DNA of 64,000 nucleotides from an uncultured Thermoleophilaceae bacterium (lineage in GTDB: Bacteria; Actinomycetota; Thermoleophilia; Solirubrobacterales; Thermoleophilaceae). Under the pieces are notes generated by a model that was given only the letters and a program-made list of their open reading frames with translations, was not told the origin of the DNA and made no database searches. The stretch covers positions 189,915 to 253,914 of the forward strand of contig CAVZVD010000011.1 in NCBI GenBank assembly GCA_963778615.1, in the 5' to 3' direction. Positions within the stretch are counted from its first letter, which is position 1. Each line of letters begins with the position of its first letter. Of the stretch, positions 27,494-51,897 are shown piece by piece. Made by a program: the position numbers and the translations under genes.

Positions 27494-27900
27494 GCCCGGG
27501 CGGGCCGCACCGCGAGGATCACCCGCGTGATGGCGCACAGCCGGCCCTCGTCGTCGGTGAAGTTCACGTCCCACACCCATGAGGTGCGCCCGCGGTGCAG
27601 CGGCCGTCCCTCGGCGTGGATCTGGCCCTCCGTGACGGGGCGCAGGAAGGTCGTGTGGTTCGACTGCCCGACGGCCATGCTGCCGTTCCCGCTCACCTGC
27701 GCGTGGGTCGTGAGCGACACCATCGCCTCGGCCAGCGCCGCGTAGGCGCCCCCGTGCACGAGCCCCATCGGCTGCTGCACCCGACGCTCGACGGCGAAGC
27801 GCGCGCGGCAGCCGTCGGAGCTCGACTCGAGCAGCTCGAAGCCGAGCACGTCGTCCAGCGTGCCGGCTGCCGGATACGTCCCAACCGGCGAATCGCTCAT
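27304..27900 (-). CDS. PaaI-family hotdog thioesterase (the true stop is probably near 27484; the assembled ORF reads ~60 codons further into the cyclase gene)
   Basis: Part of ORF 27304..28182, from ATG 27900. MSDSPVGTYPAAGTLDDVLGFELLESSSDGCRARFAVERRVQQPMGLVHGGAYAALAEAMVS...GRTSWVWDVNFTDDEGRLCAITRVILAV. A 1-nt shift in the CCCGCCCGGGCC run would give a TGA at 27484-27486. Confidence 0.8.
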   Translation of the reverse strand: MSDSPVGTYPAAGTLDDVLGFELLESSSDGCRARFAVERRVQQPMGLVHGGAYAALAEAMVSLTTHAQVSGNGSMAVGQSNHTTFLRPVTEGQIHAEGRPLHRGRTSWVWDVNFTDDEGRLCAITRVILAVRPARAYDLRSSRYASTRSSLPFTSISPSEVARRPGTALSVAPPTTTPPVGARLSRRAATFTVSPITV

Positions 27901-27927
27901 CGCGTTCACACTACAGTTCGCCCTGCA

Positions 27928-28932
27928 TTGGCCACTTTCGACCAGCTGTCTGACGAGCAGCGGGCGATCGTCGAGCTGGTTCTCAAGCAGGGGAAGAGCT
28001 ACGACGAGCTGTCCGACATGCTCGGCCTCCCGGAGACCCGCGTGCGCGAGCTCGCGCGCGACGCCCTCGTCGACCTCGCCCCCATCACGGCCCGCGGGGT
28101 CGAGGAGGACTGGCGCGGCCAGCTCACCGACTACGTCCTGGGCCAGCAGGCCGGCCCGGAGGCGACCGCCACCCGCGGCCACCTGCGCCGCTCCGAGGCG
28201 GCCCGCGCCTGGACCAGCTCGCTGCTGGACGCGCTCGAGCAGCTCTACCCGAACGGCGACGTCCCCGCCATCCCCGACGGCGAACGCGGGCGGCGCGGCG
28301 CGGCGGCCGCGCCCAAGCCGGGCGGCGCCGAGACGGGCTCCCGCGGCCTCGCTTCCGGTGGCGCCGCGGCCGCCGGGCGCAGGCGCCTCCTGGCCGCCGC
28401 CGGAGTCCTCGTCCTCATCCTCGTGGTGGTGCTGCTCTGGCCCATCGGGGTCCTCACAGGCGGCGACGACGACGAGCCGAGCGAGGCGAGCGCGGGCTCA
28501 CAGAACCAGCCCCAGCAGGGGCAGGGAGGCGACGGCGCACCGATCCCGACCGGTACCCAGGGCCAGGCGATCATCGCCCGGCAGGAGGGCACGAACCAGA
28601 TCCTGGTCAACGCGTCCGGCCTCGAGCCCAGCACGCAGAACACCGCCTACCAGGTCTACCTCGCCAACTCCGAGGAGGACCGCAGGTCGCTCGGCGCGAC
28701 CGTGACCGACCAGCAGGGCAACCTCCAGGCCGGCGCCCCGCTGCCGAGGAACTTCGAGGACTACGAGTTCATCGACCTGGCGGCGGTGACGGTCGAGGGG
28801 CGCGGCGAGAACCAGCGCTTCGAGGAGGGCGCCACCGTCCTCCGCGGCCTCCTGGAGCTGCGCGACAACCCCCGCACGCGCAACGGGATCACGCTGCTCG
28901 GCCAGGTCCAGCTGCGCCCGCTGCCCGAGTAG
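27928..28932 (+). CDS. Membrane protein with N-terminal sigma-70 region-4-like HTH and C-terminal anti-sigma-K (RskA)-like domain
   Basis: C-terminal 335 aa of ORF 27595..28932, from in-frame TTG 27928. FDQLSDEQRAIVELVLKQGKSYDELSDMLGLPETRVRELARDAL; one TM helix (LLAAAGVLVLILVVVLLWPIGVL); the extracytoplasmic part ...TAYQVYLANSEEDRRSLGATVTDQQGNLQ... resembles the RskA C-domain. Confidence 0.65.
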   Translation: MATFDQLSDEQRAIVELVLKQGKSYDELSDMLGLPETRVRELARDALVDLAPITARGVEEDWRGQLTDYVLGQQAGPEATATRGHLRRSEAARAWTSSLLDALEQLYPNGDVPAIPDGERGRRGAAAAPKPGGAETGSRGLASGGAAAAGRRRLLAAAGVLVLILVVVLLWPIGVLTGGDDDEPSEASAGSQNQPQQGQGGDGAPIPTGTQGQAIIARQEGTNQILVNASGLEPSTQNTAYQVYLANSEEDRRSLGATVTDQQGNLQAGAPLPRNFEDYEFIDLAAVTVEGRGENQRFEEGATVLRGLLELRDNPRTRNGITLLGQVQLRPLPE

Positions 28933-30516: not shown

Positions 30517-30555
30517 CTCAAGCTTCTCCGCGCCGCTGCCGACGCACGTAGTGCG

Positions 30556-32464
30556 ATGGCGCGGCCCCCGCACCCGACGCCGGAAGTGGCCCGCGCGCGC
30601 CGTTACGCCGCCCGAGTGCGGATCCTGCTTGCCGTCGTGGGCGGCGGGCTGCTCGCGGTAGACCCCGCCGTGACCTCCCACCCGGTGCCCGCGGCGATCG
30701 GATTCGCGGTGATCGGCGTGACCGGCATCGTCGAGTGGGCGGTCCAGAACGAGCGCTGGCTCGCCGTGGAGGAGGCGCTCTCGTGCGTCGCGGTCGTCTG
30801 CATGGTCGGCTGGAGCGGCGGCGACGTGAACCTCGTCAGCATGCTCTGGCTCGTGGCCGCCGCAAGCGGCGTGCTCGCCCGCGGCGGGCGGGTCGGCGTC
30901 GTCGGCCGCGTGGTCGTGGTCGGGACGCTGCTCTCCCCGATCGTCACCCAGGGCACGATGACCCCCGAGGCGATCGGCTTCGGCGCCGCGTCGATCGCCC
31001 TGCTCCTGGCCACCGGCCGGATCTCGCGCGAGACGGCCGAGCTGCTCCACCGGGCCCGGCACGACGCCGCGCACGACTCGCTCACCGGCCTGCTGTCGCG
31101 CGCCTCCTTCCGTTCCCAGGTCGACCGCCTGACGGGGGTGGCGACGACGGAGCGGCCCGCCACGCTGATCGCCATCGACCTGGACGACTTCGGCGCGATC
31201 AACAAGCGCCTCGGCCACGCGGCCGGCGACCGGCTGCTCGTGCAGGCGGCCCGGGCCATGGAGGAGACGCTGCGCGAGGGCGACGTGCTGGGCCGGCTCG
31301 GCGGCGACGAGTTCGCCGCGCTCGTGTTCTGCGACGACCCCGTGCCGGTGGCCGAGCGGCTGCTCGACGCGGTCGCCTCGAACGGCGTGCGCGGCTCGTC
31401 GGGCTGCGCCGGAATCGCCAGCGCCCCGCACGACGGAATCGGTGCCGAGGCGCTCCTCGCCGCCGCCGACGTGGCGCTCCGGATCTCGAAGCGCGCCGGC
31501 AAGCAGGCCGTGAGCATCTACCAGGGCGCGCCGATCGCGGCGGGAGGAGCCGATGGCGCCCGGGCGGCGCTGGAGCGCCTCTGCCACGGCTACGGCCTGC
31601 GGATGGAGACCCAGCCGATCGTCGACCTGGAGAGCGGCCGCATCCACGCCTACGAGGCGCTGGCGCGCTTCGCCACCCGCGGCGGCGAGGGTCCGCTGCA
31701 CTGGTTCGCGCTGGCGGACGAGTTCGGCCTGCGGGCGGAGCTCGAGCTGGCCTGCCTCGAGGCGTCGCTCGCCCTGCTGCCGAAGCTGCCGGAGGACACC
31801 CGGCTGAGCGCCAACCTGTCCGCGCCGCTGCTCGTCGACACTCGCACGTCCGATCTGCTCGACGCCTCCGAGGACCTCTCGCGTCTGATCATCGAGGTGA
31901 CGGAGGAGACGCTGGTGCGGCACGGCGAGGCGATCGACCGCACGCTGGCGAGCCTGAGGCGCCGCGGCGTCCAGTTCGCGGTGGACGACGTGGGCGCCGG
32001 GTACTCGGGCCTCAGCCAGCTCGCCACGCTCGCGGCCCACCTACCTCAAGCTCGACCGCGGCCTCGTGAGCGAGATCGCCCGCGAGCCGGCCCGGGTGGA
32101 GCTGGTGCGGGCGCTGTCGGTCTACGCCCGCGGCACCGGCGGCATGCTGGTGGCGGAGGGCGTCGAGACCGCGGAGCAGCTCGCCCACGTGCGCGCCGCG
32201 GGAGCGCCGCTCGCGCAGGGCTACCTGCTCGCCCGGCCCGGCGCGCCCTGGCCGCAGCTCGACGAGAACGCCCGCGCGCTAGTCGGGGAGCAGCTTGCCG
32301 GGGTTCATGATCCCGGCGGGGTCGAGCCGCTGCTTGGCGGCGCGGATGAGGTCGAGCCCGACCTCGCCCACCTCGGCGGGCATCCAGGCGGCGTGGTCGC
32401 GGCCGACGGCGTGGTGGTGGGTGATGGTGCCGCCCGCGGCCAGGATCGCCTCGCTGGCGGCTGA
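30556..32464 (+). CDS. Membrane GGDEF-EAL protein (diguanylate cyclase/phosphodiesterase); frameshift near 32035; the true 3' end is probably ~32280-32300
   Basis: ORF 30556..32310: TM region, HDSLTGLLSR, an RxxD I-site plus GGDEF (LREGDVLGRLGGDEFAAL), and EAL (HAYEALARF, DDVGAGYSGLSQL). The continuation YLKLDRGLVSEIAREPARVELVRALSVYARGTGGMLVAEGVETAEQ...AQGYLLARP is in ORF 32066..32464. Confidence 0.85.
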
Positions 32465-34332: not shown

Positions 34333-34856
34333 CCCTCGTCGTACACGACGAGCGAGTGGACGTCATACCCGGCCAGCCGCTCGCGCCCGTTCAGGAAGCC
34401 GAGCTCGATCACGAACGCGCATCCTGCCACGACGCCGCCGGCCTGTTCGACCAGGTCGCACAGCGCCCGCGCGGTGCCGCCGGTGGCGAGCAGGTCGTCG
34501 TGCACCAGCACGCGCGCACCACCGCGCACCGCGTCGGCATGCATCTCGAGAGCGTCCACCCCGTACTCGAGCTGGTACTCGACCGAGGACACCTCGCGCG
34601 GCAGCTTCCCGGGCTTCCGGCCCAGGATGAACCCGGCGCCCGCAGCGGCGGCCACGGCGGCGCCGAGCACGAAGCCCCGGGCCTCCGCCGATGCCACGTA
34701 GTCGATCTGCTTGGAGCGGGCGAAGTCGGCCAGCTCGTCGATCGCGTGCCGTAGCGCCTCGGGGTCGAGGAACAGCGTCGTGACGTCGTAGAAGAGGATC
34801 CCCGGCTTGGGGAAGTCGGGCACTCGCCCGATGTGCTTGTCGAGGTCGACAGTCAG
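34329..34856 (-). CDS. apt: Adenine phosphoribosyltransferase (no ATG/GTG/TTG at the conserved N-terminus; possible CTG start at 34856)
   Basis: C-terminal part of ORF 34329..36038. TVDLDKHIGRVPDFPKPGILFYDVTTLFLDPEAL...VLVHDDLLATGGTA (PRPP motif). It begins right at the stop of the upstream MerR gene (34853). Confidence 0.85.
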   Translation of the reverse strand: MTVDLDKHIGRVPDFPKPGILFYDVTTLFLDPEALRHAIDELADFARSKQIDYVASAEARGFVLGAAVAAAAGAGFILGRKPGKLPREVSSVEYQLEYGVDALEMHADAVRGGARVLVHDDLLATGGTARALCDLVEQAGGVVAGCAFVIELGFLNGRERLAGYDVHSLVVYDEG

Positions 34857-35588
34857 CGGGCGAGCTTCCGCAGGTCCCGGATCAGCAGCAGGTGCTTCAG
34901 GTGCGACGCGATGGCGGCCAGGTTCTCGAGCGCCTCCACCGCCTCCTTGCGCCGCTCGGGGTTCCGCGACCGCAGCGCCGGGGCGAGGATCTGCTCGAGC
35001 AGCGCCGCCTCGCGGTCCGCCGAGGTGCGGAACACGCGCAGGTTGCGACCGCCCACGCCGAAGCGCTTCAGCTCGGTCACGGCGCGCACTATCTCGCGCT
35101 CCGTGTCGTCGTAGAGCAGCTCGCCGTCGCGGCGCTCCGCCTTGATCACCCCGTAGTCCTCGAGCTCCTTGACGAGGCGCCGGGTCGGCGCCCGTTTCCT
35201 CGAGCACCTCCTCCAGGCGGTAGACCGAGCCCGGGCCGCGCAGCGCGAAGCTGGCCCGCCGCGCGGCCGGCCGCGGCTCCGGGGCGGAGGGCTGCGGCGA
35301 GTCGGAGTCCGCCCGGCCCGCGGCCAGCTCCTGGCGGATCACGCGGAGCGGCAGGAACTCGTCGCGCTGGAGGCGCAGGATCGTGCGCAGCCGGTCCACG
35401 TCCGCCGGGCCGTAGAGGCGGTAGCCGCCCGGCGTGCGCCGCGGCGCCAGCAGCTTCTGGTCCTCCAGGTAGCGGATCTTGGAGATCGAGATCTCCGGGA
35501 ACTCGCGCTCGAGCTGCTTGACGACCGCACCGATCGTGAGCGCCTTCTCCTTGCGGGGCTGGGGGCCTCCCGCTACCTCTGTGCTCAT
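34853..35588 (-). CDS. MerR-family regulator (FtsR-like, by position next to the FHA gene); frameshift near 35175 as assembled
   Basis: ATG 35588 overlaps the FHA stop (ATGA). MSTEVAGGPQPRKEKALTIGAVVKQLEREFPEISISKIRYLEDQKLLAPRRTPGGYRLYGPADVDRLRTILRLQRDEFLPLRVIRQEL is in the ORF 34329..36038 frame. The C-terminus RLVKELEDYGVIKAERRDGELLYDDTEREIVRAVTELKRFG... is in ORF 34853..35149. Confidence 0.85.
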
Positions 35589-36052
35589 CTCTCGTCCAGG
35601 TATGTGAGCTTGTACTTGCCGACCTGCAGCTCGTCGCTGTCGGTCAGCCGGTGCGACTCGATCCGGCGCCTGTTCACGTAGGTGCCGTTGAGCGAGCCCA
35701 GGTCGTCTATGTAGAGCCCGTCGCGGCGGCGCACGATCAGGGCGTGGTTGCGGGACACGGTCACGTCGTCGAGGAAGATCTCCGCCTCCGGGCTGCGGCC
35801 GATCGTCATGCGCTCGCCGCTCAGCGTGAAGGCCTCGCCCGCGCGCCCGCCGCCCGACCGGATGACGATCGTGGCGCCCTCGTGGGTGACCTCGTCGAGG
35901 TCGACCGCGCGCAGCTCGCCGGTCTCGTCGACCTGGTAGACCTCGGTCGTGTCGCCGGCCTTGCCCGACTCGGCCTCGCCGAGGAACGCGCCACAGCGCT
36001 GGCAGTAGTTGGCGCCCTCCGCGTTGACGAATCCGCACTCGGGGCAGTGCAC
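35585..36052 (-). CDS. FHA-domain protein (GarA/OdhI-like) with N-terminal zinc-ribbon
   Basis: ORF 35585..36052 (155 aa). MHCPECGFVNAEGANYCQRCG (CxxC...CxxC). A DTTEVY segment. FHA core MTIGRSPEAEIFLDDVTVSRNHALIVRRRDGLYIDDLGSLNGTYVN. Confidence 0.9.
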   Translation of the reverse strand: MHCPECGFVNAEGANYCQRCGAFLGEAESGKAGDTTEVYQVDETGELRAVDLDEVTHEGATIVIRSGGGRAGEAFTLSGERMTIGRSPEAEIFLDDVTVSRNHALIVRRRDGLYIDDLGSLNGTYVNRRRIESHRLTDSDELQVGKYKLTYLDER

Positions 36053-36058
36053 GGCGGC

Positions 36059-36319
36059 CTACCCGGGTCCGTCGTCGGCCGGGATTCCCTTCCCGGACAG
36101 GATGTCGGTGAGCTGCTGCACGTCGTCGCCGCTGATCACGGACTCGCCTTCAGCATGCTTCTTGCGCAGCCTGTTCACAAGTTCCGCGCGCAAGATGTCG
36201 ATCTTGCCGTGCAGGATGCGGCGACGGTACGACACCTCCTGCTCCTCCTCGGTCAGTTGCTGGATGAGGTCCTTCAGCTCCTGGTCGGAGAGGGCACCCA
36301 GATCCGGGAAAGTGTCCAT
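36059..36319 (-). CDS. Small coiled-coil protein with an RsiG-like c-di-GMP-binding motif (87 aa)
   Basis: Within ORF 36059..36376. ATG 36319 gives MDTFPDLGALSDQELKDLIQQLTEEEQEVSYRRRILHGKIDILRAELVNRLRKK... It contains E-x3-S-x2-R-x3-H-x3-D; the RsiG motif is E-x3-S-x2-R-x3-Q-x3-D. Confidence 0.7.
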   Translation of the reverse strand: MDTFPDLGALSDQELKDLIQQLTEEEQEVSYRRRILHGKIDILRAELVNRLRKKHAEGESVISGDDVQQLTDILSGKGIPADDGPG

Positions 36320-36325
36320 TCGGCG

Positions 36326-36331
36326 ACTATA
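36326..36331 (-). promoter_or_regulatory. Candidate -10 hexamer (TATAGT) for a leaderless transcript of the RsiG-like gene
   Basis: The minus strand reads GCTATAGTCGCCGAATG: TATAGT, a 6-nt spacer, then ATG 36319. The motif TATAGTCGCC also occurs upstream of proS. Confidence 0.35.
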
Positions 36332-36339
36332 GCCGATGC

Positions 36340-36951
36340 TCAAGTAGAGGTTGAGCCTTGGTGAAGGCCTCGCCATCCATCTTGCATGTAGCGCGCCGTA
36401 GCCGCAAGCGTCAGGGCGAGGCCCAGGTAGAGCAGGGCGGCGGAGACCCAGGTCTCGACGATCATGGCGAGGCCGAGCGCCCCCATCACCGGCCAGACGG
36501 CCCAGCGGCCCAGCATGTTCACGCTCAGGTCGATGCCGCGCCGCAGCGCGATCTGGGTCAGGAGCAGCATCAGCGCCTCACGCGCCGCCAGCACCAGCAG
36601 CGCCCAGCGCGGCAGCAGCTCGAACTCCCAGGCCACGATGGCGCCCGAGATCACGAGCAGGCGGTCCGTGAGCGGGTCGAGCAGGGCGCCCAGGCGGCTG
36701 TACTGGCCGGTGATCCGCGCGGCCATGCCGTCGAGCTGGTCGGCCCAGGCGATGAAGGCGAACAGGATGGTGGCGGCGGTGTCGCGGCCGTCGCCCGAGT
36801 CGAGCGCCATGATCAGGAAGACCGGGATCAGGGCGAGCCGCACGAACCCGATGGCGTTGGGGATCGTCCAGGGGTGGAGCGCCTCCCCGCGGAGCGTCTC
36901 GGGGGGCGGGCCGCCGGAGCGGTCGAGGCCGACGAGGCGCCGGAACGTCAG
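36340..36951 (-). CDS. pgsA: CDP-diacylglycerol--glycerol-3-phosphate 3-phosphatidyltransferase (CDP-alcohol phosphatidyltransferase family); start uncertain
   Basis: ORF 36340..36843 begins at a GTG inside the conserved N-terminus. The in-frame upstream peptide ...LRGEALHPWTIPNAIGFVRLALIPVFL must be part of the protein. The only candidate start after the proS stop is CTG 36951. Motif DQLDGMAARITGQYSRLGALLDPLTDR. Confidence 0.8.
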   Translation of the reverse strand: MTFRRLVGLDRSGGPPPETLRGEALHPWTIPNAIGFVRLALIPVFLIMALDSGDGRDTAATILFAFIAWADQLDGMAARITGQYSRLGALLDPLTDRLLVISGAIVAWEFELLPRWALLVLAAREALMLLLTQIALRRGIDLSVNMLGRWAVWPVMGALGLAMIVETWVSAALLYLGLALTLAATARYMQDGWRGLHQGSTST

Positions 36952-36996
36952 GGGCGGCGCTCGGCCCGCCGCCTTCGCCGTCGCCCTCGCGGCGGC

Positions 36997-38695
36997 TCAG
37001 GGAAGGCTTGCCCAAAGCTCCGCGGCCGCCGCGGCGGCGCCCTCGAGGGGCAGCGAGCGCTTCTCCTGGGCGCGCCGGATCTGCACGTCCACCTCGCCGG
37101 CCTCGAGTCCTCGCTTGCCGATCGTCAGGCGCAGCGGGCAGCCGAGCAGCTCGGCGTCGGCGAACTTCTCGCCCGCGCTGCCCTCGCGGTCGTCGTAGAG
37201 CACGTCGAGGCCGTGCGACGCGGAGCTCCTCGTAGAGCCGGTCCGACACCTCGCGGGCCTCCTCACCCTGCTTCCCGAGCGTGACGAGCTCGACGTCGAA
37301 GGGCGCCATGGCGCGCGGCCAGGAGATGCCCTGCTCGTCGGCGTACTGCTCGATGGCCGCGGCGACGATCCGGGCCGGCCCGATCCCGTACGAGCCCATC
37401 CAGATGAGCTGCTCCTTGCCGTGCTCGTCGAGGTAGCGGGCGCCCAGCGGCTCCGAGTAGCGCGTGCCCAGCTTGAAGATGTTGCCCACCTCGATCGCCG
37501 GCTCGATCGTGATCGGCGCCCCGTCCGGGCAGGTGTCGCCCTCCTCCACCCGCCGGACGTCGCCCCAGCTGGGGTCGAAGTCGCGGCCGGGCTCCACGCC
37601 GCGCAGGTGCAGGTCGTGCTCGTTGCCGCCCGTGACGAGGCCATGCAGGCCGCGCAGGGCTTCGTCGGCGAGCACCTCCACAGGCGCGCCGACCGGGCCG
37701 ATGAAGCCGGGCTCGGCCTTGAAGATCGAGCGCACCTCCTCGGGCTCGGCGGGCCTGGCCGCGGTGCCCAGCGCGTTCTGAAGCTTGATCTCGTTGAGGC
37801 GGTGGTCGCCGCGCACCAGCACCAGCACCGGCCCGCGGCCGTCCGCCACCACGGGCATCGCCTTGATCACGGCGCCGGCGGGCACGCCGAGCAGGCGCGT
37901 CACGTCCTCGACCGTGGTGGCGCCGGGCGTCTCGACCCGCTCGGGCGCGTCGAGCGGCCCGGGCAGACCGTCGACGGGCCGCGGGCTGGCGCTCGCCACC
38001 TCTATGTTGGCCGCGTAGCCCGCCGAGGAGAGCGCGACGTCGTTCTCGCCCGCCCCGCAGGGCGCCATGTACTCGTGGGCGCCGATGCCGCCCATCATCC
38101 CCACGTCCGACTCGACCCGGTACCACTCGAGCCCGGTCCGGTCGAAGATGCGGTCGTAGGCCTCGATATGGAGCTGATACGAGCGCTCGAGGCCGTCCGG
38201 ATCAACGTCGAACGAGTACGAGTCCTTCATGATGAACTCGCGGGTGCGGAGCACCCCGGCGCGGGGCCGCGCCTCGTCGCGCTCCTTGGTCTGGAAGTGG
38301 TAGAGGATCTTCGGCAGGTCGCGGTACGAGCGGACCTCGCGCGAGACGTGCCAGGTGACGTTCTCCTCGTGGCTCAGCGCGAGCACGAAGTCGGCGCCGC
38401 GCCGGTCCTTGAGCTTGAAGACCTCGTCGATGTCGTAGCGGCCGGTGCGCCTCCAGGTCTCGGCCGGCTGGATCACCGGCATCAGCATCTCCATCGCGCC
38501 GATCGCGTCGAGCTCCTCGCGGACGATCTGCTCGACCTTGCGGTGCGCCCGCCAGCCGGCCGGCAGCCAGGTCCAGAAGCCGGCGCTGACCTGCCTGGCG
38601 AGGCCCGCCCGCACGGTCAGGCGGTGCGAAATGGCCTCGGCGTCGGCCGGGGCCTCGCGCGTGGTAGGGAGGAAATAGCGGGAAAGCCGGGTCAC
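36997..38695 (-). CDS. proS: Proline--tRNA ligase (frameshift near 37220 as assembled)
   Basis: ORF 36578..38695 gives [32 protein letters not shown]...[29 protein letters not shown]...[17 protein letters not shown]. The C-terminal anticodon-binding part [46 protein letters not shown]... is in ORF 36997..37644. Confidence 0.95.
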
Positions 38696-38710: not shown

Positions 38711-38756
38711 TCCCCGTAGGGCTCAATTTCCTGGCCGAAACGCCGATGTAGAGGGG

Positions 38757-40761
38757 ATGGACCCTCCTGGGACCCAACGCGTGCTTCTACGCGTGTGCTG
38801 GTACGGCGCGGCCGTGCTGCTGGCGGCGTTCGTGCTGCAGGCCGCGACCGGCGTCGCCGGCGAGGCCGCGACCGGCTTCTTCCAGGACTACGTGTACAAC
38901 GCCCTGCTCCTGGCCGGGGCCGGCTTCTGCCTGTGGCGGGCGGCGGCGTTCCGCGAGGAGCGCGTCGCCTGGCTCGTCATTGGCGCGGGGCTCGTGGCCT
39001 GGACGGGTGCGGACGTGCTCTGGACCGCCGTATACGCGGACGACGCGAGCCCGCCCTACCCCGAGCGTGTCCGACGCGCTCTGGCTCGTCTACTACCCCG
39101 CCGCCTGCGTCACGCTGCTGCTCCTGGCCCGCGCCCGGGTCGGGAACGATCCGCCTCAACCTCCTCTTCGACGGGCTCATCGCCGCCCTGACGGTGGCCG
39201 CGCTCGGCTGCGCGGTGCTGTACGGGCCGGTCGTGCACGCGAGCGCCGGGGAGCTGAGCCCCGAGGTCCTCACCAACCTGGCCTACCCCGTCGGCGACCT
39301 GCTTCTGCTCGGCCTCGTCGTGGCGATCCTCGGCCTCACCGGCTGGCGCCCCGGGCGCGCCTGGATCCTGCTCGGGCTCGGCCTGGCGCTCGCCGCCGTG
39401 GCGGACGGCGTCTACCTGCTGCAGACGGTGGAGGGCACCTACGTCGAGGGCACGCTGCTCGAGACGCTGTGGCCCGCCTCGGCGCTCCTCGTGGGCCTCT
39501 CCGCCTGGCAGCCGGCCGAGCGGGCGGCGGCGACCACCCACGAGAGCCTCCGGTGGTGCTGGTGCCGTTCGCGGCCGGCCTGACGGGGATCGCGCCTGCT
39601 CACATACGACCACTTCGACCGCCTGAACGAGGTCACGGCTGATCCTCGGCTCGGTGGCGCTCCTGCTCGTGGTGGTGCGGACCGGCGCTGCTGTTCTCGG
39701 AGAACCAGCGCATGATCTCGCGCATCCACGACGAGGCGCGCACGGACCCGCTGACCGGCCTGCGCAACCGGCGCAGCCTGATGGACGACCTGGCCGACGA
39801 GCTGCGCGCTCGCGACGCGCGGACGAGCCGCGGGCGATCGTGCTGTTCGACCTCGACGGCTTCAAGGAGTACAACGACGCCTTCGGCCACCCCGCCGGGG
39901 ACGGGCTGCTGGTGCGGCTCGGGATGCGGCTGGCGGACGTCGTAGCGGGGCCACGGCCGGGCCTACCGGCTCGGCGGCGACGAGTTCTGCGTGCTGCTGC
40001 GGCCCGGCGCGGGCGGCGTCGAGCCGCTGACGCTGGCCTGCGTGGCGGCGCTGAGCGAGCACGGCGAGGGCTTCGACGTGACGACCTCGCACGGCGCCGT
40101 GCTGGCCCCCGCCGAGGCGCGCACCGCGACAGAGGCGCTGCAGCTCGCCGACCGGCGCATGTACGCCCGCAAGGGCGGGCGGCGGCTGTCGGCGTGGAAC
40201 CAGTCGCGCGACGTGCTGCTGCGGACCCTGTCCGAGACGCGGCCGGACCTGCACGCCCACCTGCGCGGCACCGCGGAGCTGGCGACGGCGGTGGGGCGCG
40301 AGCTGGGGATGCGCCCGGAGGCCTTGGACGAGGTCGCCCGGGCCGCCGAGCTCCACGACGTGGGCAAGATGGCGATCCCGGACGCGATCCTCGAGAAGAC
40401 GGGGCCGCTCGACGACGCCGAGTGGAGCTTCATGCGGCGCCACACGATCATCGGCGAGCGGATCCTGCTGGCGGCGCCGGCGCTCCGCTCGGCCGCGCGG
40501 CTGGTGCGCGCGAGCCACGAGCGCTGGGACGGGCTCGGGTACCCCGACGGCCTCGCCGGCGAGGACATCCCGCTGGGCGCCCGGGTGGTGGCCGCCTGCG
40601 ACGCCTACCACGCGATGACGACCGACCGCCCGCACCGGCCCCGCCAAAGCGCCTCGGAGGCGCTGGGGGAGCTGTCCCGCTGCGCCGGAACGCAGTTCGA
40701 CCCGGAGGTCGTGGAGGCGTTCGCGCGGGTGCTGGAGCGGGAAGCCGCCCACGCCGCGTAG
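38757..40761 (+). CDS. Membrane sensor GGDEF / HD-GYP protein (at least 5 frameshifts as assembled)
   Basis: Stitched from ORFs 38757, 38980, 38795, 39712, 39654 and 39991. Multi-TM N-terminus; DPLTGLRNRRSL, IVLFDLDGFKEYNDAFGHPAGD, YRLGGDEFCVLL; then ELHDVGKMAIPDAILEKTGPLDDAEW...HTIIGERIL...SHERWDGLGYPDGLAGEDIPLGARVVAACDAYHAMTTDRPHR. Confidence 0.85.
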
Positions 40762-47944: not shown

Positions 47945-49067
47945 GCGGCCACCCCCCTCGCCACCTCGCGCGCCTCGCCGTCCGCCTCGTAGAGGTCCGA
48001 GAAGTGGCGCACCGGCCGCGCCGGCAGCTCGGCCAGGGTCGACTCGATCACCCGCGCGATCCCGGTGAACGACAGCTCGCCGCGCAGGAAGGCGTGCACC
48101 GCCACCTCGTTGGCCGCGTTCAGCACGCAGGGCGCCGTGCCGCCGGCCCGGGCCGCCTCGCGCGCCAGGCGCAGGCAGGCGAAGGTGGCCTCGTCCGGGC
48201 GCCTCGAAGGTGAGCGCGCCCAGCTCGACCAGGTCGAGCGTCCGCACCGGCACGTCGGCGCGCTCCGGGTGGTGGAGCGCGTAGGAGATCGGCACTCGCA
48301 TGTCGGGATAGCCGAGGTGCGCCAGCGAGGCGCCGTCGTTCAGGTGCACCAGCGCGTGGACGATCGACTGCGGGTGCACCACCACGTCGATCGCCTCGTA
48401 CGGCACGCCGAACAGGTGGTGGGCCTCGATCAGCTCGAGCCCCTTGTTCATCAGCGTCGCGGAGTCGACCGTGATCTTCCCGCCCATCCGCCAGGTCGGG
48501 TGCGCGAGCGCCTCCTCCACGGTCACGCCGTCGAGGTCGCGTGCGGCCGCGGAACGGGCCGCCGCTCGCGGTGAGCACCAGCCGGTCGACCGTGCCCGGC
48601 CGCTCGCCCTCCAGCAGCTGGAACAGGGCCGAGTGCTCGGAGTCGACCGGGATCAGCTGGGCGCCGGTGGCCTCGGCCAGCGCCGTGACCAGCTCGCCGC
48701 CCACCACGAGGCTCTCCTTGTTGGCGAGCGCGAGGTCGATCCCCTCGCCCAGCGCGGCGACGGTCGGCCCCAGGCCGGCGGAGCCCACGAGGGCGTTCAG
48801 CACGAGGTCGCAGTCGGTCTCCACGATCAGCTCGACGAGGCCCTCCGGCCCGCTCAGCACCTCGGCGTGCTCGCCGGCGCGGGCCGCGGCGTCGGGGTCG
48901 GCCAGGGCGAGCCGGTCCACGCCGAAGCGGCCCGCCTGCTCGAGCAGCAGCTCCCAGCTCGAGCCGGCCGCCAGCCCGGCGATCTCGAGCTCGCCGCTCC
49001 GCTCGACCACGTCGAGCGCCTGCGTTCCGATCGACCCGGTCGACCCGACGATGAGGACCCTTCTCAC
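47941..49067 (-). CDS. dxr: 1-deoxy-D-xylulose-5-phosphate reductoisomerase (at least 2 frameshifts as assembled)
   Basis: [21 protein letters not shown]...[11 protein letters not shown]...[11 protein letters not shown] is in ORF 48120..49067. [32 protein letters not shown] is in ORF 47219..48526. The C-terminus [13 protein letters not shown]... is in ORF 47941..48126. Confidence 0.9.
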
Positions 49068-49134: not shown

Positions 49135-51857
49135 CTAGCCGATCACGGCCAGCAGCGCCTCCACGACCCGCGGGTCGAGCTGCGTGCCCGCCACGCGGCG
49201 CAGCTCCGCCCGGGCCTCCTCCTCCGGCAGCGCGGCCCGGTACGGCCGCGGCGCCGTCATCGCCTCGTACGTGTCGCAGGCGAACACGATGCGGGCGCCC
49301 AGCGGGATCTCCTCGCCGGCCAGACCGTCGGGGTAACCGCGCGCCGTCCCAGCGCTCGTGGGCGCCGCGCACCAGCGGCAGCACGTCGGCCAGGAACTCG
49401 ATCGGCGCGAGGATCTGCTCCCCGATCACCGGGTGGCGCTGCACGATCTCGCGCTCGTCGTCGGTCAGCGGCCCCGGCTTGTTCAGGATCTCCTCCGGCA
49501 CGGCCAGCTTGCCGATGTCGTGGAACGCCGCCCCGTAGCGCAGCGTACGGAGCGCCTGCTCGGGCATGCCCAGGAGCCGCCCGACCGCCTCGGCACGCTG
49601 AACCAGCGAGCGCGAGTGCGTCGGCGGTGTAGGAGTCCTTGGCCTCGAGCGCCGCGTTGAGCGCCTCCGCGGTGCCGAGGTAGGCGCGCTCGAGCTGCTC
49701 GTAGAGCGTCGCCGACCGCAGCGCGGCGGCGAGCTGGTCCGCCACGGCGCGCAGCAGGCGGGCGTCCTCCTCGTCGAAGGCCTCCAGGGCGTCGCTCTGG
49801 ACCGAGATCGCGCCCCACGGGCGCCCGTTCACCACCACCGGCACGTCGAGCTCGCAGCGCGTCGACGCGGTGACCGGGGTCGAGTGGTAGTCCGGCTCGC
49901 GGCGCACGTCGGGGGCGAGCACGGGCCGGCTCTCGCGCAGGCAGCGCGAGATCAGGCCGCGCCCGGCGGGCGGCATGTAGCGGCGGACGCTCGGGGCGTC
50001 GAGGCGGCCGGCGCCGGCGACCAGCTCGTGCGCCCCGTCCGAGCAGAGCCGCGCGATCGCGGACGCGTCCGCGCCCATGCCGGCGTGCACCTGGTCGATC
50101 GTCGCCCGCACGATGCGGTCGAGGTCGCTCACACCGGCCAGCCGCGCCGCCAGCCCGCTCGTGAGCTGCACCTGCCGGGTGCGCCGCTGGAGCAGCGCGG
50201 CGCCGCCCTTGCCGGCCGGGCGCGGCGGGATCGCGGCGCGGAGCAGCAGCCCGCACTCGTACATGGCCTCCTCGAGCGGAGCGGAGCGCTCGTCGGAGTA
50301 GATCTCGAGCAGCCAGGTGAAGTCGTGGTCGGCCGCCGCGGCGGCCAGCACGCCGGTGCGGTTGTGCACCCTCAGCAGCGCCCGCTCGGCCGCGTCGGAG
50401 TGGCTGTCGTCCGCGCGCGCCACGAAGGCCCCGGCGCCCGCGCGGATCAGCCGGGCCGTGGCCGGATAGTCGTCGATGGCGTAGATGTCGTTGTCGGCCT
50501 CGAGGCGCAGCCCCTCGACGCGCTGGTCGCGCGAGTCGGCCTGGGCGACGGTGTGGATCTTGTCTCCGCCGGCAGGCGCGAACGAGACCGCCCAGGCAGC
50601 CGCGTTCAGGGCCTCGGAGATGTGCACGGCCACCGCCTCGATCCGCTCGAGCGGCCCCTCGTCCGCCAGCGCGCCCTCGAACCGCTCGGCCAGCTCCTGC
50701 ATGGCGTCGCGGACCCGGTCGCGCGTGTTGCGCCGCAGGGTGCGCCGTTCGCCCCGCGCGGCCCGCTCGGGCGCCCGCGATCCCGCGGTGAAGATCTGCC
50801 CGCCGCCGTTCCGCTTGGCGCGGTAGAGCGCGGCGTCGGCCGCCCGCAGCAGCTGGATCGGCGAGTCCACGCCGGCGCCGAGCGCCGCGGCGCCGCAGGA
50901 GATCGAGATGTGGACCTCGGACGGGCCCGCCAGGGACGCGAGCGTCGCTCCCGCCAGCGCGCGCGCCTCGTCGAGGGTGGCGCCCTCCATCACCACGCAG
51001 AACTCGTCGCCCGACAGGCGCCCGACCAGGTTGCCGGGCCGCGTGGCCGCGGCGGCCACCAGCGCCTCGCCGACGCGCCGCAGCGCCCGGTCGCCGCCGT
51101 CGTGGCCGTGCTCGTCGTTGACGACCTTCAGATCGTCCACGTCGCAGAGCAGCAGCGCGAGCGCGGCGTCGCGCTCGACCGCCCTGGCCACGGCGCGCTC
51201 GAGCCGCTCCTCGAGCGCCCGCCGGTTGGCGAGGCCCGTGAGCGGGTCCTCGTAGGCCAGCCGCGAGACGCGAGAGAACAGCTCGGCCCGCTCGATCGCC
51301 ACCGCCAGCTGGCCGGCCACGGCCTCGAGGAAGCGCACGTCCTCGCTGCGGAAGCGCGGCTCGCCCGGCGCCGTGGTGGCGTACACCTCGCCCCACGGCT
51401 CGCCCTCGACGACGATCGGGACCCCGACCTCCGACTCCTTGCCGAGCCGCCGCAGGCGGGCGGCGCACCAGGGATCGACGCCGGTGTCGTCCACCGCGTT
51501 GAAGTACGGGACCCCCTCGATGAGCAGTCGCTGGCCGCTCAGGTCCTCGCCGAGCTCGTAGATCTCACCGTCCGGCCAGCGCTCCTCGCCGGGACCCAGC
51601 ACGCCGACGTTGATCATCGTCCGCAGGGCGGAGCCGTCACGGTCCCAGCGGCTCACCGACAGCGAAGCCGCGCCGGTCGCGGCGCGCGCCTCCTCGGCGG
51701 CCACCTCGAGCACCTGGTCGAGGTCGTGCGCCCCCGCCGCGGCGGCCGCCACGCGAAGAAGCGCCTCGCGCTCGGAACCGGCGGGCCGCAGCCCCCCGTT
51801 TCGCGCCGCTCCGCCGGGACGCGCCCGCGCAGCGGTAAGACCCCCTACGGGCTCCAT
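49135..51857 (-). CDS. Multidomain c-di-GMP signalling protein GAF-GGDEF(SGDEF)-GAF-GAF-HD-GYP (2 frameshifts near the 3' end as assembled)
   Basis: ATG 51857 within ORF 49257..52817. MEPVGGL..., GAF, EDPLTGLANRRAL...LCDVDDLKVVNDEHGHDGGD...GRLSGDEFCVVM, two further GAF-like regions, then HDIGKLAVPEEILNKPGPLTDDEREIVQRHPVIGEQIL...HERWDG (ORF 49064..49567). GYPDGLAGEEIPLGARIVFACDTYEAMTAPRPYR...ALLAVIG* lies in a third frame (stop 49135). Confidence 0.85.
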
Positions 51858-51897
51858 CCGATCACCATCGGCCAAACGCGGCCGGGACTTGAGGCCC

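Follow-up and report, generated by a model that had tools for sequence, protein, structure and literature searches.

The window, a 64-kb stretch of DNA from an uncultured Thermoleophilaceae bacterium, carries on its minus strand a small open reading frame designated rsiG below. It lies between a pgsA/clsA-like gene and a gene for a zinc-ribbon protein with an FHA domain, with a MerR-family gene next, as the initial annotation had described. The reading frame runs from ATG (36319-36317) to TAG (36061-36059), and the pgsA stop codon lies 20 nt before its start. The initial delimitation and the quoted product were exact; the length given, 87 residues, included the stop codon, and the protein has 86 aa. 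An identical protein is encoded on 41 public contigs, where it is annotated as "hypothetical protein". Three genes of c-di-GMP turnover, in accordance with the earlier remark that the region is rich in such enzymes, complete the features considered here (Table 1).

Table 1. Features of the window. Apparent frameshifts were placed by comparison with intact ORFs in relatives.
Feature	Position	Strand	Remarks
rsiG CDS	36059..36319	minus	86 aa plus stop; translation, Pfam RsiG-like, PDB RsiG matches
c-di-GMP-binding signature codons, E26-x3-S30-x2-R33-x3-H37-x3-D41	36197..36244	minus	translation, ortholog alignment, published motif
-10-like hexamer TATAGT	36326..36331	minus	6 nt (CGCCGA) upstream of rsiG ATG
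Palindrome CTCAA-N7-TTGAG, putative FtsR box	36339..36355 (within 36335-36359)		-35 region; overlaps pgsA stop
pgsA/clsA-like CDP-alcohol phosphatidyltransferase	36340..36957	minus	start codon uncertain
Zn-ribbon + FHA protein (OdhI/GarA-like)	35585..36052	minus	start 6 nt past rsiG stop
ftsR (MerR N-domain + Rv1828_C)	34853..35588	minus	ATGA overlap with FHA stop; frameshifted
GGDEF-EAL gene	30556-32461	plus
TM-GGDEF-HD-GYP gene	38757-40761	plus
GAF-GGDEF-GAF(-HD-GYP) gene	51857-~49150	minus
WhiG-type match TCAA-N16-GCCGACGC	30518..30545	plus	10 nt before ATG 30556, GGDEF-EAL gene
WhiG/sigma-28-type match TCAA-N15-GCCGATGT	38723..38749	plus	7 nt before ATG 38757, TM-GGDEF-HD-GYP gene
WhiG-type match TCAA-N16-GCCGATGG	51865..51892	minus	7 nt before ATG 51857, GAF-GGDEF-GAF gene
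Apparent frameshift, proS	~37212-37223
Apparent frameshift, ftsR	~35176-35184
Apparent frameshift, GGDEF-EAL	~32031-32036
Apparent frameshift, GGDEF-HD-GYP	39055-39950
Apparent frameshift, GAF-GGDEF-HD-GYP	49150-49620
Apparent frameshift, dxr	~48120-48530

The genes that appear frameshifted are conserved or essential and are intact in near-identical contigs. Compared with the related locus L083, the window shows 95.9% nucleotide identity and 34 gap openings in 15.8 kb. It looks like an indel-prone, possibly long-read, assembly and not like a set of pseudogenes. The rsiG reading frame is intact despite the frameshifts in other genes.

The arrangement of the genes around rsiG had been called a conserved block, and the order proS-pgsA-rsiG-FHA-MerR-apt is indeed found in all 80 related loci where the flanks exist, as well as on six contigs with an identical RsiG protein. 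Mean identity over the 80 loci (34853-38695) was 83.8% for RsiG, 81-84% for FtsR, 75% for ProS, 71% for the FHA protein, 66% for Apt and 61% for PgsA, a ranking biased by the choice of these loci for RsiG similarity. By profile score and gene context, the MerR-family gene two positions downstream of rsiG is ftsR. It encodes a Pfam Rv1828_C domain, its best PDB match is Rv1828 (5ydc), and the intact copy on L083 matches the NCBIfam FtsR equivalog NF050798 with 225.9 bits (cutoff 150). The FtsR gene of other actinobacteria follows an OdhI/GarA-like FHA gene, and in the window, too, such a gene adjoins it on the upstream side.

The rsiG product is matched by the Pfam family PF22802 (RsiG-like) with 76.1 bits (cutoff 27; E 1.8e-21), residues 3-74 aligning with positions 3-65 of the 65 in the profile. 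In a phmmer search against the PDB, the significant matches were RsiG proteins only (E 2.8e-12 to 2.5e-10). Both repeats of Streptomyces venezuelae RsiG/AmfC (6pfj/6pfv) match the product with E 2.8e-12, and Rubrobacter radiotolerans RsiG (7lq2, 7lq3, 7lq4) with E ~2e-10, the alignments to both species covering residues 5-51 of the product. The homology to the RsiG family thus extends beyond the short motif from which it had been proposed. That motif, E26-QEV-S30-YR-R33-RIL-H37-GKI-D41, is present as a single copy, and its five signature residues are invariant in an alignment of 14 homologs that are 49-90% identical to the window protein. A search for E...S..R...[QH]...D in the six frames of the whole window gave a single match, with a shuffle mean of 0.05. 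The initial annotation had counted four of five signature positions, with His in place of Gln. The four matches stand, but the histidine is no mismatch, since the published motif reads E(X)3S(X)2R(X)3[Q/H](X)3D and His was judged capable of the same stacking contact (Schumacher et al. 2021, PNAS, PMC8325347). His is in fact usual at this position in the clade, with 268 H against 9 Q (267 relatives).

The family is large in metagenomes: at least 7,994 matches were found among 8,000 scored 90% clusters, PF22802 is present on every metagenome cluster listed, and 1,061 representatives remain at 50% identity. The best 80 genome loci, with 73-96% identity, all belong to Thermoleophilaceae, Solirubrobacterales or Conexibacter, and one member of the 90% cluster of the identical protein comes from a Thermoleophilaceae MAG. 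In NCBIfam release 20 there is no RsiG model matching the product, whereas Pfam has one. Taken together, these results make the window gene very probably the RsiG ortholog of Thermoleophilia; RsiG is an anti-sigma factor that acts, dependent on c-di-GMP, on WhiG, a sigma factor of the sigma-28 type.

Some RsiG-like metagenome ORFs (P0121, P0123, P0001, P0002, P0004, P0182-P0262) contain twin repeats that are 38-73% identical to each other, compared with 33-40% in the published twin-motif RsiGs. P0121 resembles a fusion of two complete single-motif units. These ORFs could be the result of more recent or independent duplications, and some of them may be chimeric, given their origin in very short contigs.

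Single-motif RsiGs have been reported to be confined to Rubrobacteria and Thermoleophilia, the latter represented by T. album, P. medicamentivorans and Conexibacter woesei (Cwoe_3492, RsiGCw) (PMC8325347). All five single-motif RsiGs studied, including the three from Thermoleophilia, co-purify with their cognate WhiG, and all five, RsiGCw among them, self-interact in BACTH assays (PMC8325347). RsiGCw, whose motif has the histidine, binds fluorescent c-di-GMP with a Kd of 25 uM alone and of 1.7 uM together with WhiGCw; c-di-AMP is not bound (PMC8325347). According to the cloning primers of that study, the protein begins with MDTFPDL in C. woesei, with MMDTFPD in T. album and with MEDTFPD in P. 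medicamentivorans (PMC8325347). The window protein shares with RsiGCw the class Thermoleophilia, the single motif with His, the N-terminus MDTFPDL and a length of ~86 aa. The C. woesei reverse primer encodes VPGGEPN, and the protein of C. arvalis, a close relative whose gene is 84% identical and lies in the same gene order as in the window, reads MDTFPDLGSL...VPGGEQS. Judged by these likenesses, the window protein is an ortholog of the characterised RsiGCw. Unlike the latter, it belongs to a lineage that has lost the 5' leader, so that rsiG appears leaderless, and the family differs, its nearest relatives being Thermoleophilaceae MAGs.

The R. radiotolerans protein (RsiGRr; PDB 7LQ2, 7LQ3, 7LQ4), which is homodimeric, also has a single motif. 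However, it has Gln at the stacking position and a longer N-terminal extension, and its C-terminal region is not alignable with that of the window protein by phmmer. RsiGSv/AmfC of S. venezuelae (PDB 6PFJ, 6PFV) has the same fold family and motif; with two motifs in its ~200 aa, it is monomeric and governs sporulation, and the window protein is the equivalent of one of its repeats. Homology, motif and clade thus support the initial reading as a single-motif, RsiG-type c-di-GMP binder, for which the Rubrobacter precedent had been correctly named. Since this clade and its His variant are already published and tested, the entity as such is not new and the interest first attached to it was overrated.

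The published WhiG consensus is T(A/C)AA-N16-GCCGATAA. Seven matches to TCAA-N15/16-GCCGA were counted in the window where 1.04 would be expected, and none of 100 shuffles reached this number. Three of the seven lie in short intergenic gaps, 7-10 nt before the starts of the three c-di-GMP turnover genes, which are the only ones in the window. The other four fall inside genes and may be an effect of codon composition. Twelve Thermoleophilaceae loci retain the HD-GYP gene, and 11 of them have GCCGAT before it, the exception being L010 with TCGATAG; in L083-L085, which are independent assemblies, the match has N16 spacing. A search with the strict form TAAA-N16-GCCGATAA, allowing 2 mismatches, gave one intragenic match (19% chance expectation), and inspection by eye of the ~70 nt before rsiG showed no WhiG-type promoter. 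In Rubrobacter, five of the 12 promoters of WhiG lie before DGC/PDE genes, so that the regulon under RsiGRr control includes c-di-GMP enzyme genes, and the matches at the c-di-GMP genes of the window mirror this arrangement. The candidate promoters before all three genes point, indirectly, to WhiG as the partner of the window RsiG.

In an AF2 monomer model (pLDDT 84.9) the protein consists of helices 12-56 and 64-74 with linker glycines G8, G58 and G63. This agrees with the RsiG-type layout of a small protein with one long helix and terminal extensions on Gly-containing linkers. A Foldseek search of the PDB with this model found nothing (best E 8.8), because a single long helix is not searchable in this way. 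When the polar WhiG contacts of RsiGRr are transferred to the window protein through the phmmer alignment (offset +33), D39 corresponds to D6 and R77 to R44, both invariant, and R72 to K39, a conservative exchange. The position of K60, which contacts WhiG sigma4, is occupied by Q27, and this counts against the RsiG-WhiG reading.

On the basis of orthology to the solved Rubrobacter complex and to the biochemically tested Conexibacter protein, the ortholog on which binding was measured, the window RsiG can be expected to dimerise and to bind c-di-GMP and WhiG. Two 86-aa protomers would pair their long helices (~12-56) as an antiparallel coiled coil, in which E26, S30, R33, H37 and D41 of each helix would jointly clamp a c-di-GMP dimer, with H37 stacking on guanine as does Gln in other RsiGs. 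The N-terminus and the short helix 64-74 would wrap sigma2 and sigma4 of WhiG. WhiG would then be sequestered at high c-di-GMP and free at low c-di-GMP, and free WhiG would transcribe promoters of the TCAA-N16-GCCGATAA type. As candidate promoters of this type precede each of the three genes of c-di-GMP turnover in the window, the circuit would include feedback.

The region upstream of rsiG contains further conserved elements. The palindrome CTCAA-N7-TTGAG has one exact match in the window and occurs essentially once per 20-kb locus. Upstream of rsiG, nA(c/g)cCTCAAgCTcAgCTTGA is found in 78 of 81 sequences, followed by a -10 element of the form gcTAtAcTcgc that is kept in nearly all relatives; in its conserved form the palindrome just upstream of this element reads (A)CCCTCAA-N7-TTGA(G/C). 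The experimental FtsR box, AACCCTAAAGTAAAGGTTGAGGGTA in C. glutamicum and AACtCTAAgcctAtGGTTGAGGtTt in M. tuberculosis, can be written ACCCTnAA-N7-TTGAGGGT, and half-site and spacing are identical to those of the rsiG palindrome. This similarity suggests that FtsR may control the rsiG-FHA-ftsR unit. It is conceivable, at a tentative level, that in Thermoleophilia rsiG stands nearest the promoter in a conserved rsiG/odhI-like FHA/ftsR operon with an FtsR box (ACCCTCAA-N7-TTGA), through which FtsR would control the levels of the anti-sigma factor and its own. If true, the c-di-GMP/WhiG switch would be coupled to cell division and to 2-oxoglutarate signalling. ftsZ was not found in the window or in the related loci. 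A link to FtsR is mentioned in neither of two papers on RsiG. The FtsR-box-like palindrome, the conserved unit of rsiG, FHA and ftsR headed by rsiG, and the apparently leaderless rsiG may be new.

The leaderless-type promoter noted initially is supported by the -10-like TATAGT, which lies at the same distance from the ATG in six independent assemblies, and rsiG of the window lineage appears to be leaderless. Most relatives have an rsiG leader of 20-45 nt with a GGA/GGAG Shine-Dalgarno sequence. The start codon is TTG in eight close Thermoleophilaceae, and in close relatives (L001, L005, L006, L009, L011, L029) a TTG start is combined with a leader of 22-35 nt and a Shine-Dalgarno sequence. In the window lineage the leader is shorter by about 22-34 nt and the start is ATG. 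The same layout is found, independently, in seven loci of Solirubrobacterales, where the start is again always ATG. A scan of 35400-37000 for two-hexamer sigma-70 promoters found none. TTGAG was rejected as the -35 element of rsiG, being only 6 nt from the -10 element in the window lineage; Solirubrobacteraceae-type loci have TTGACC 16 nt from TATACT.

A Rubrobacter-like Gln-variant rsiG occupies positions 487-874 of an 874-bp contig (L089, GCA_020063745.1). Its stop codon overlaps (ATGA) a Zn-ribbon ORF, MSVCPECGSEV..., comparable to the Zn-ribbon FHA gene of the window. The called start at 573 looks wrong, and ATG 487, which sits 7 nt past TATACT, gives MGEE... as in RsiGRr. From the Rubrobacter context as represented by this one 874-bp contig, the linkage of rsiG to a Zn-ribbon gene and the leaderless layout may predate Thermoleophilia.

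A FliA/WhiG-type sigma factor gene had been reported as missing from the window, and tblastn searches with FliA of E. coli and WhiG of S. venezuelae likewise gave no match in the 64 kb. With the same queries, no whiG was found at a distance of up to 10 kb from rsiG in any of 86 related loci. However, RsiG and WhiG are described in two RsiG papers as co-occurring within genomes and not as encoded by adjacent genes, so that the missing whiG near rsiG is uninformative as counter-evidence. The initial description of the partner as unknown is therefore not upheld: by orthology the partner would be WhiG, presumably encoded elsewhere in the source genome. A candidate on L083 (17367-18374) was discarded as WhiG since it has only a Sigma70_r4 domain (Pfam) and no tblastn match with WhiG. 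This 335-aa protein is encoded ~7 kb from rsiG, would be expected at ~27600-28930 on the plus strand of the window, and scores weakly, below the cutoffs, against an anti-sigma model of NCBIfam and against ECF sigma region 4.

Alternatively, the protein could be a c-di-GMP receptor of the RsiG fold that in Thermoleophilia pairs mainly with another protein encoded in its operon, either FtsR or the OdhI-like FHA protein, and not with WhiG; c-di-GMP would then act directly on the control of cell division or central metabolism. The order rsiG-FHA-ftsR never varies in the 80 loci, and the genes lie close together (6-nt gap, ATGA overlap), which could be read in this way. However, operon linkage indicates co-expression and not physical partnership. 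Within the block, sequence conservation is highest for RsiG and FtsR (~84%), a figure biased by the selection of loci by RsiG similarity. The FtsR-box-like palindrome in the rsiG promoter region, and the fact that whiG was never linked to rsiG in the loci searched, also fit an operon partner. Against this, three Thermoleophilia RsiGs co-purify with their own WhiG, the affinity of RsiGCw for c-di-GMP is 15-fold higher with WhiG, and WhiG-contact residues are conserved in RsiG. A partner from the operon is thus unlikely, and WhiG is the preferred one.

It is still less probable, to a degree that makes it very doubtful, that rsiG is unexpressed or mis-delimited and that the true product is a 105-aa protein from the in-frame ATG at 36376, upstream of the rsiG start, as 105-aa versions from some gene callers would have it. 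The extension overlaps the 3' end of pgsA and lacks conservation, the orthologs and the published constructs begin with M(D/E)TFPD, and both the conserved -10 element and the Shine-Dalgarno sequence of relatives lie downstream of ATG 36376. Finally, a generic small coiled-coil protein with a chance motif and no c-di-GMP binding is practically discounted by the full-length family match (Pfam, PDB), by the invariance of the motif in orthologs and its single occurrence against 0.05 expected, and by the c-di-GMP binding measured on the ortholog RsiGCw.

The finding as such adds one more ortholog to a published, structurally and biochemically characterised family, and in this respect matters little. 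It has some practical value, since this protein is publicly labelled "hypothetical" and has no NCBIfam model, whereas its family is huge in soil metagenomes; the annotation could therefore be transferred. A second look by a specialist is warranted for the WhiG-type promoters and the FtsR-box operon. These two observations, with WhiG-type promoters present on every local c-di-GMP gene, and the leader loss that occurred repeatedly provide testable hypotheses on how the RsiG-WhiG switch may be wired in the abundant uncultured Thermoleophilia of soil.
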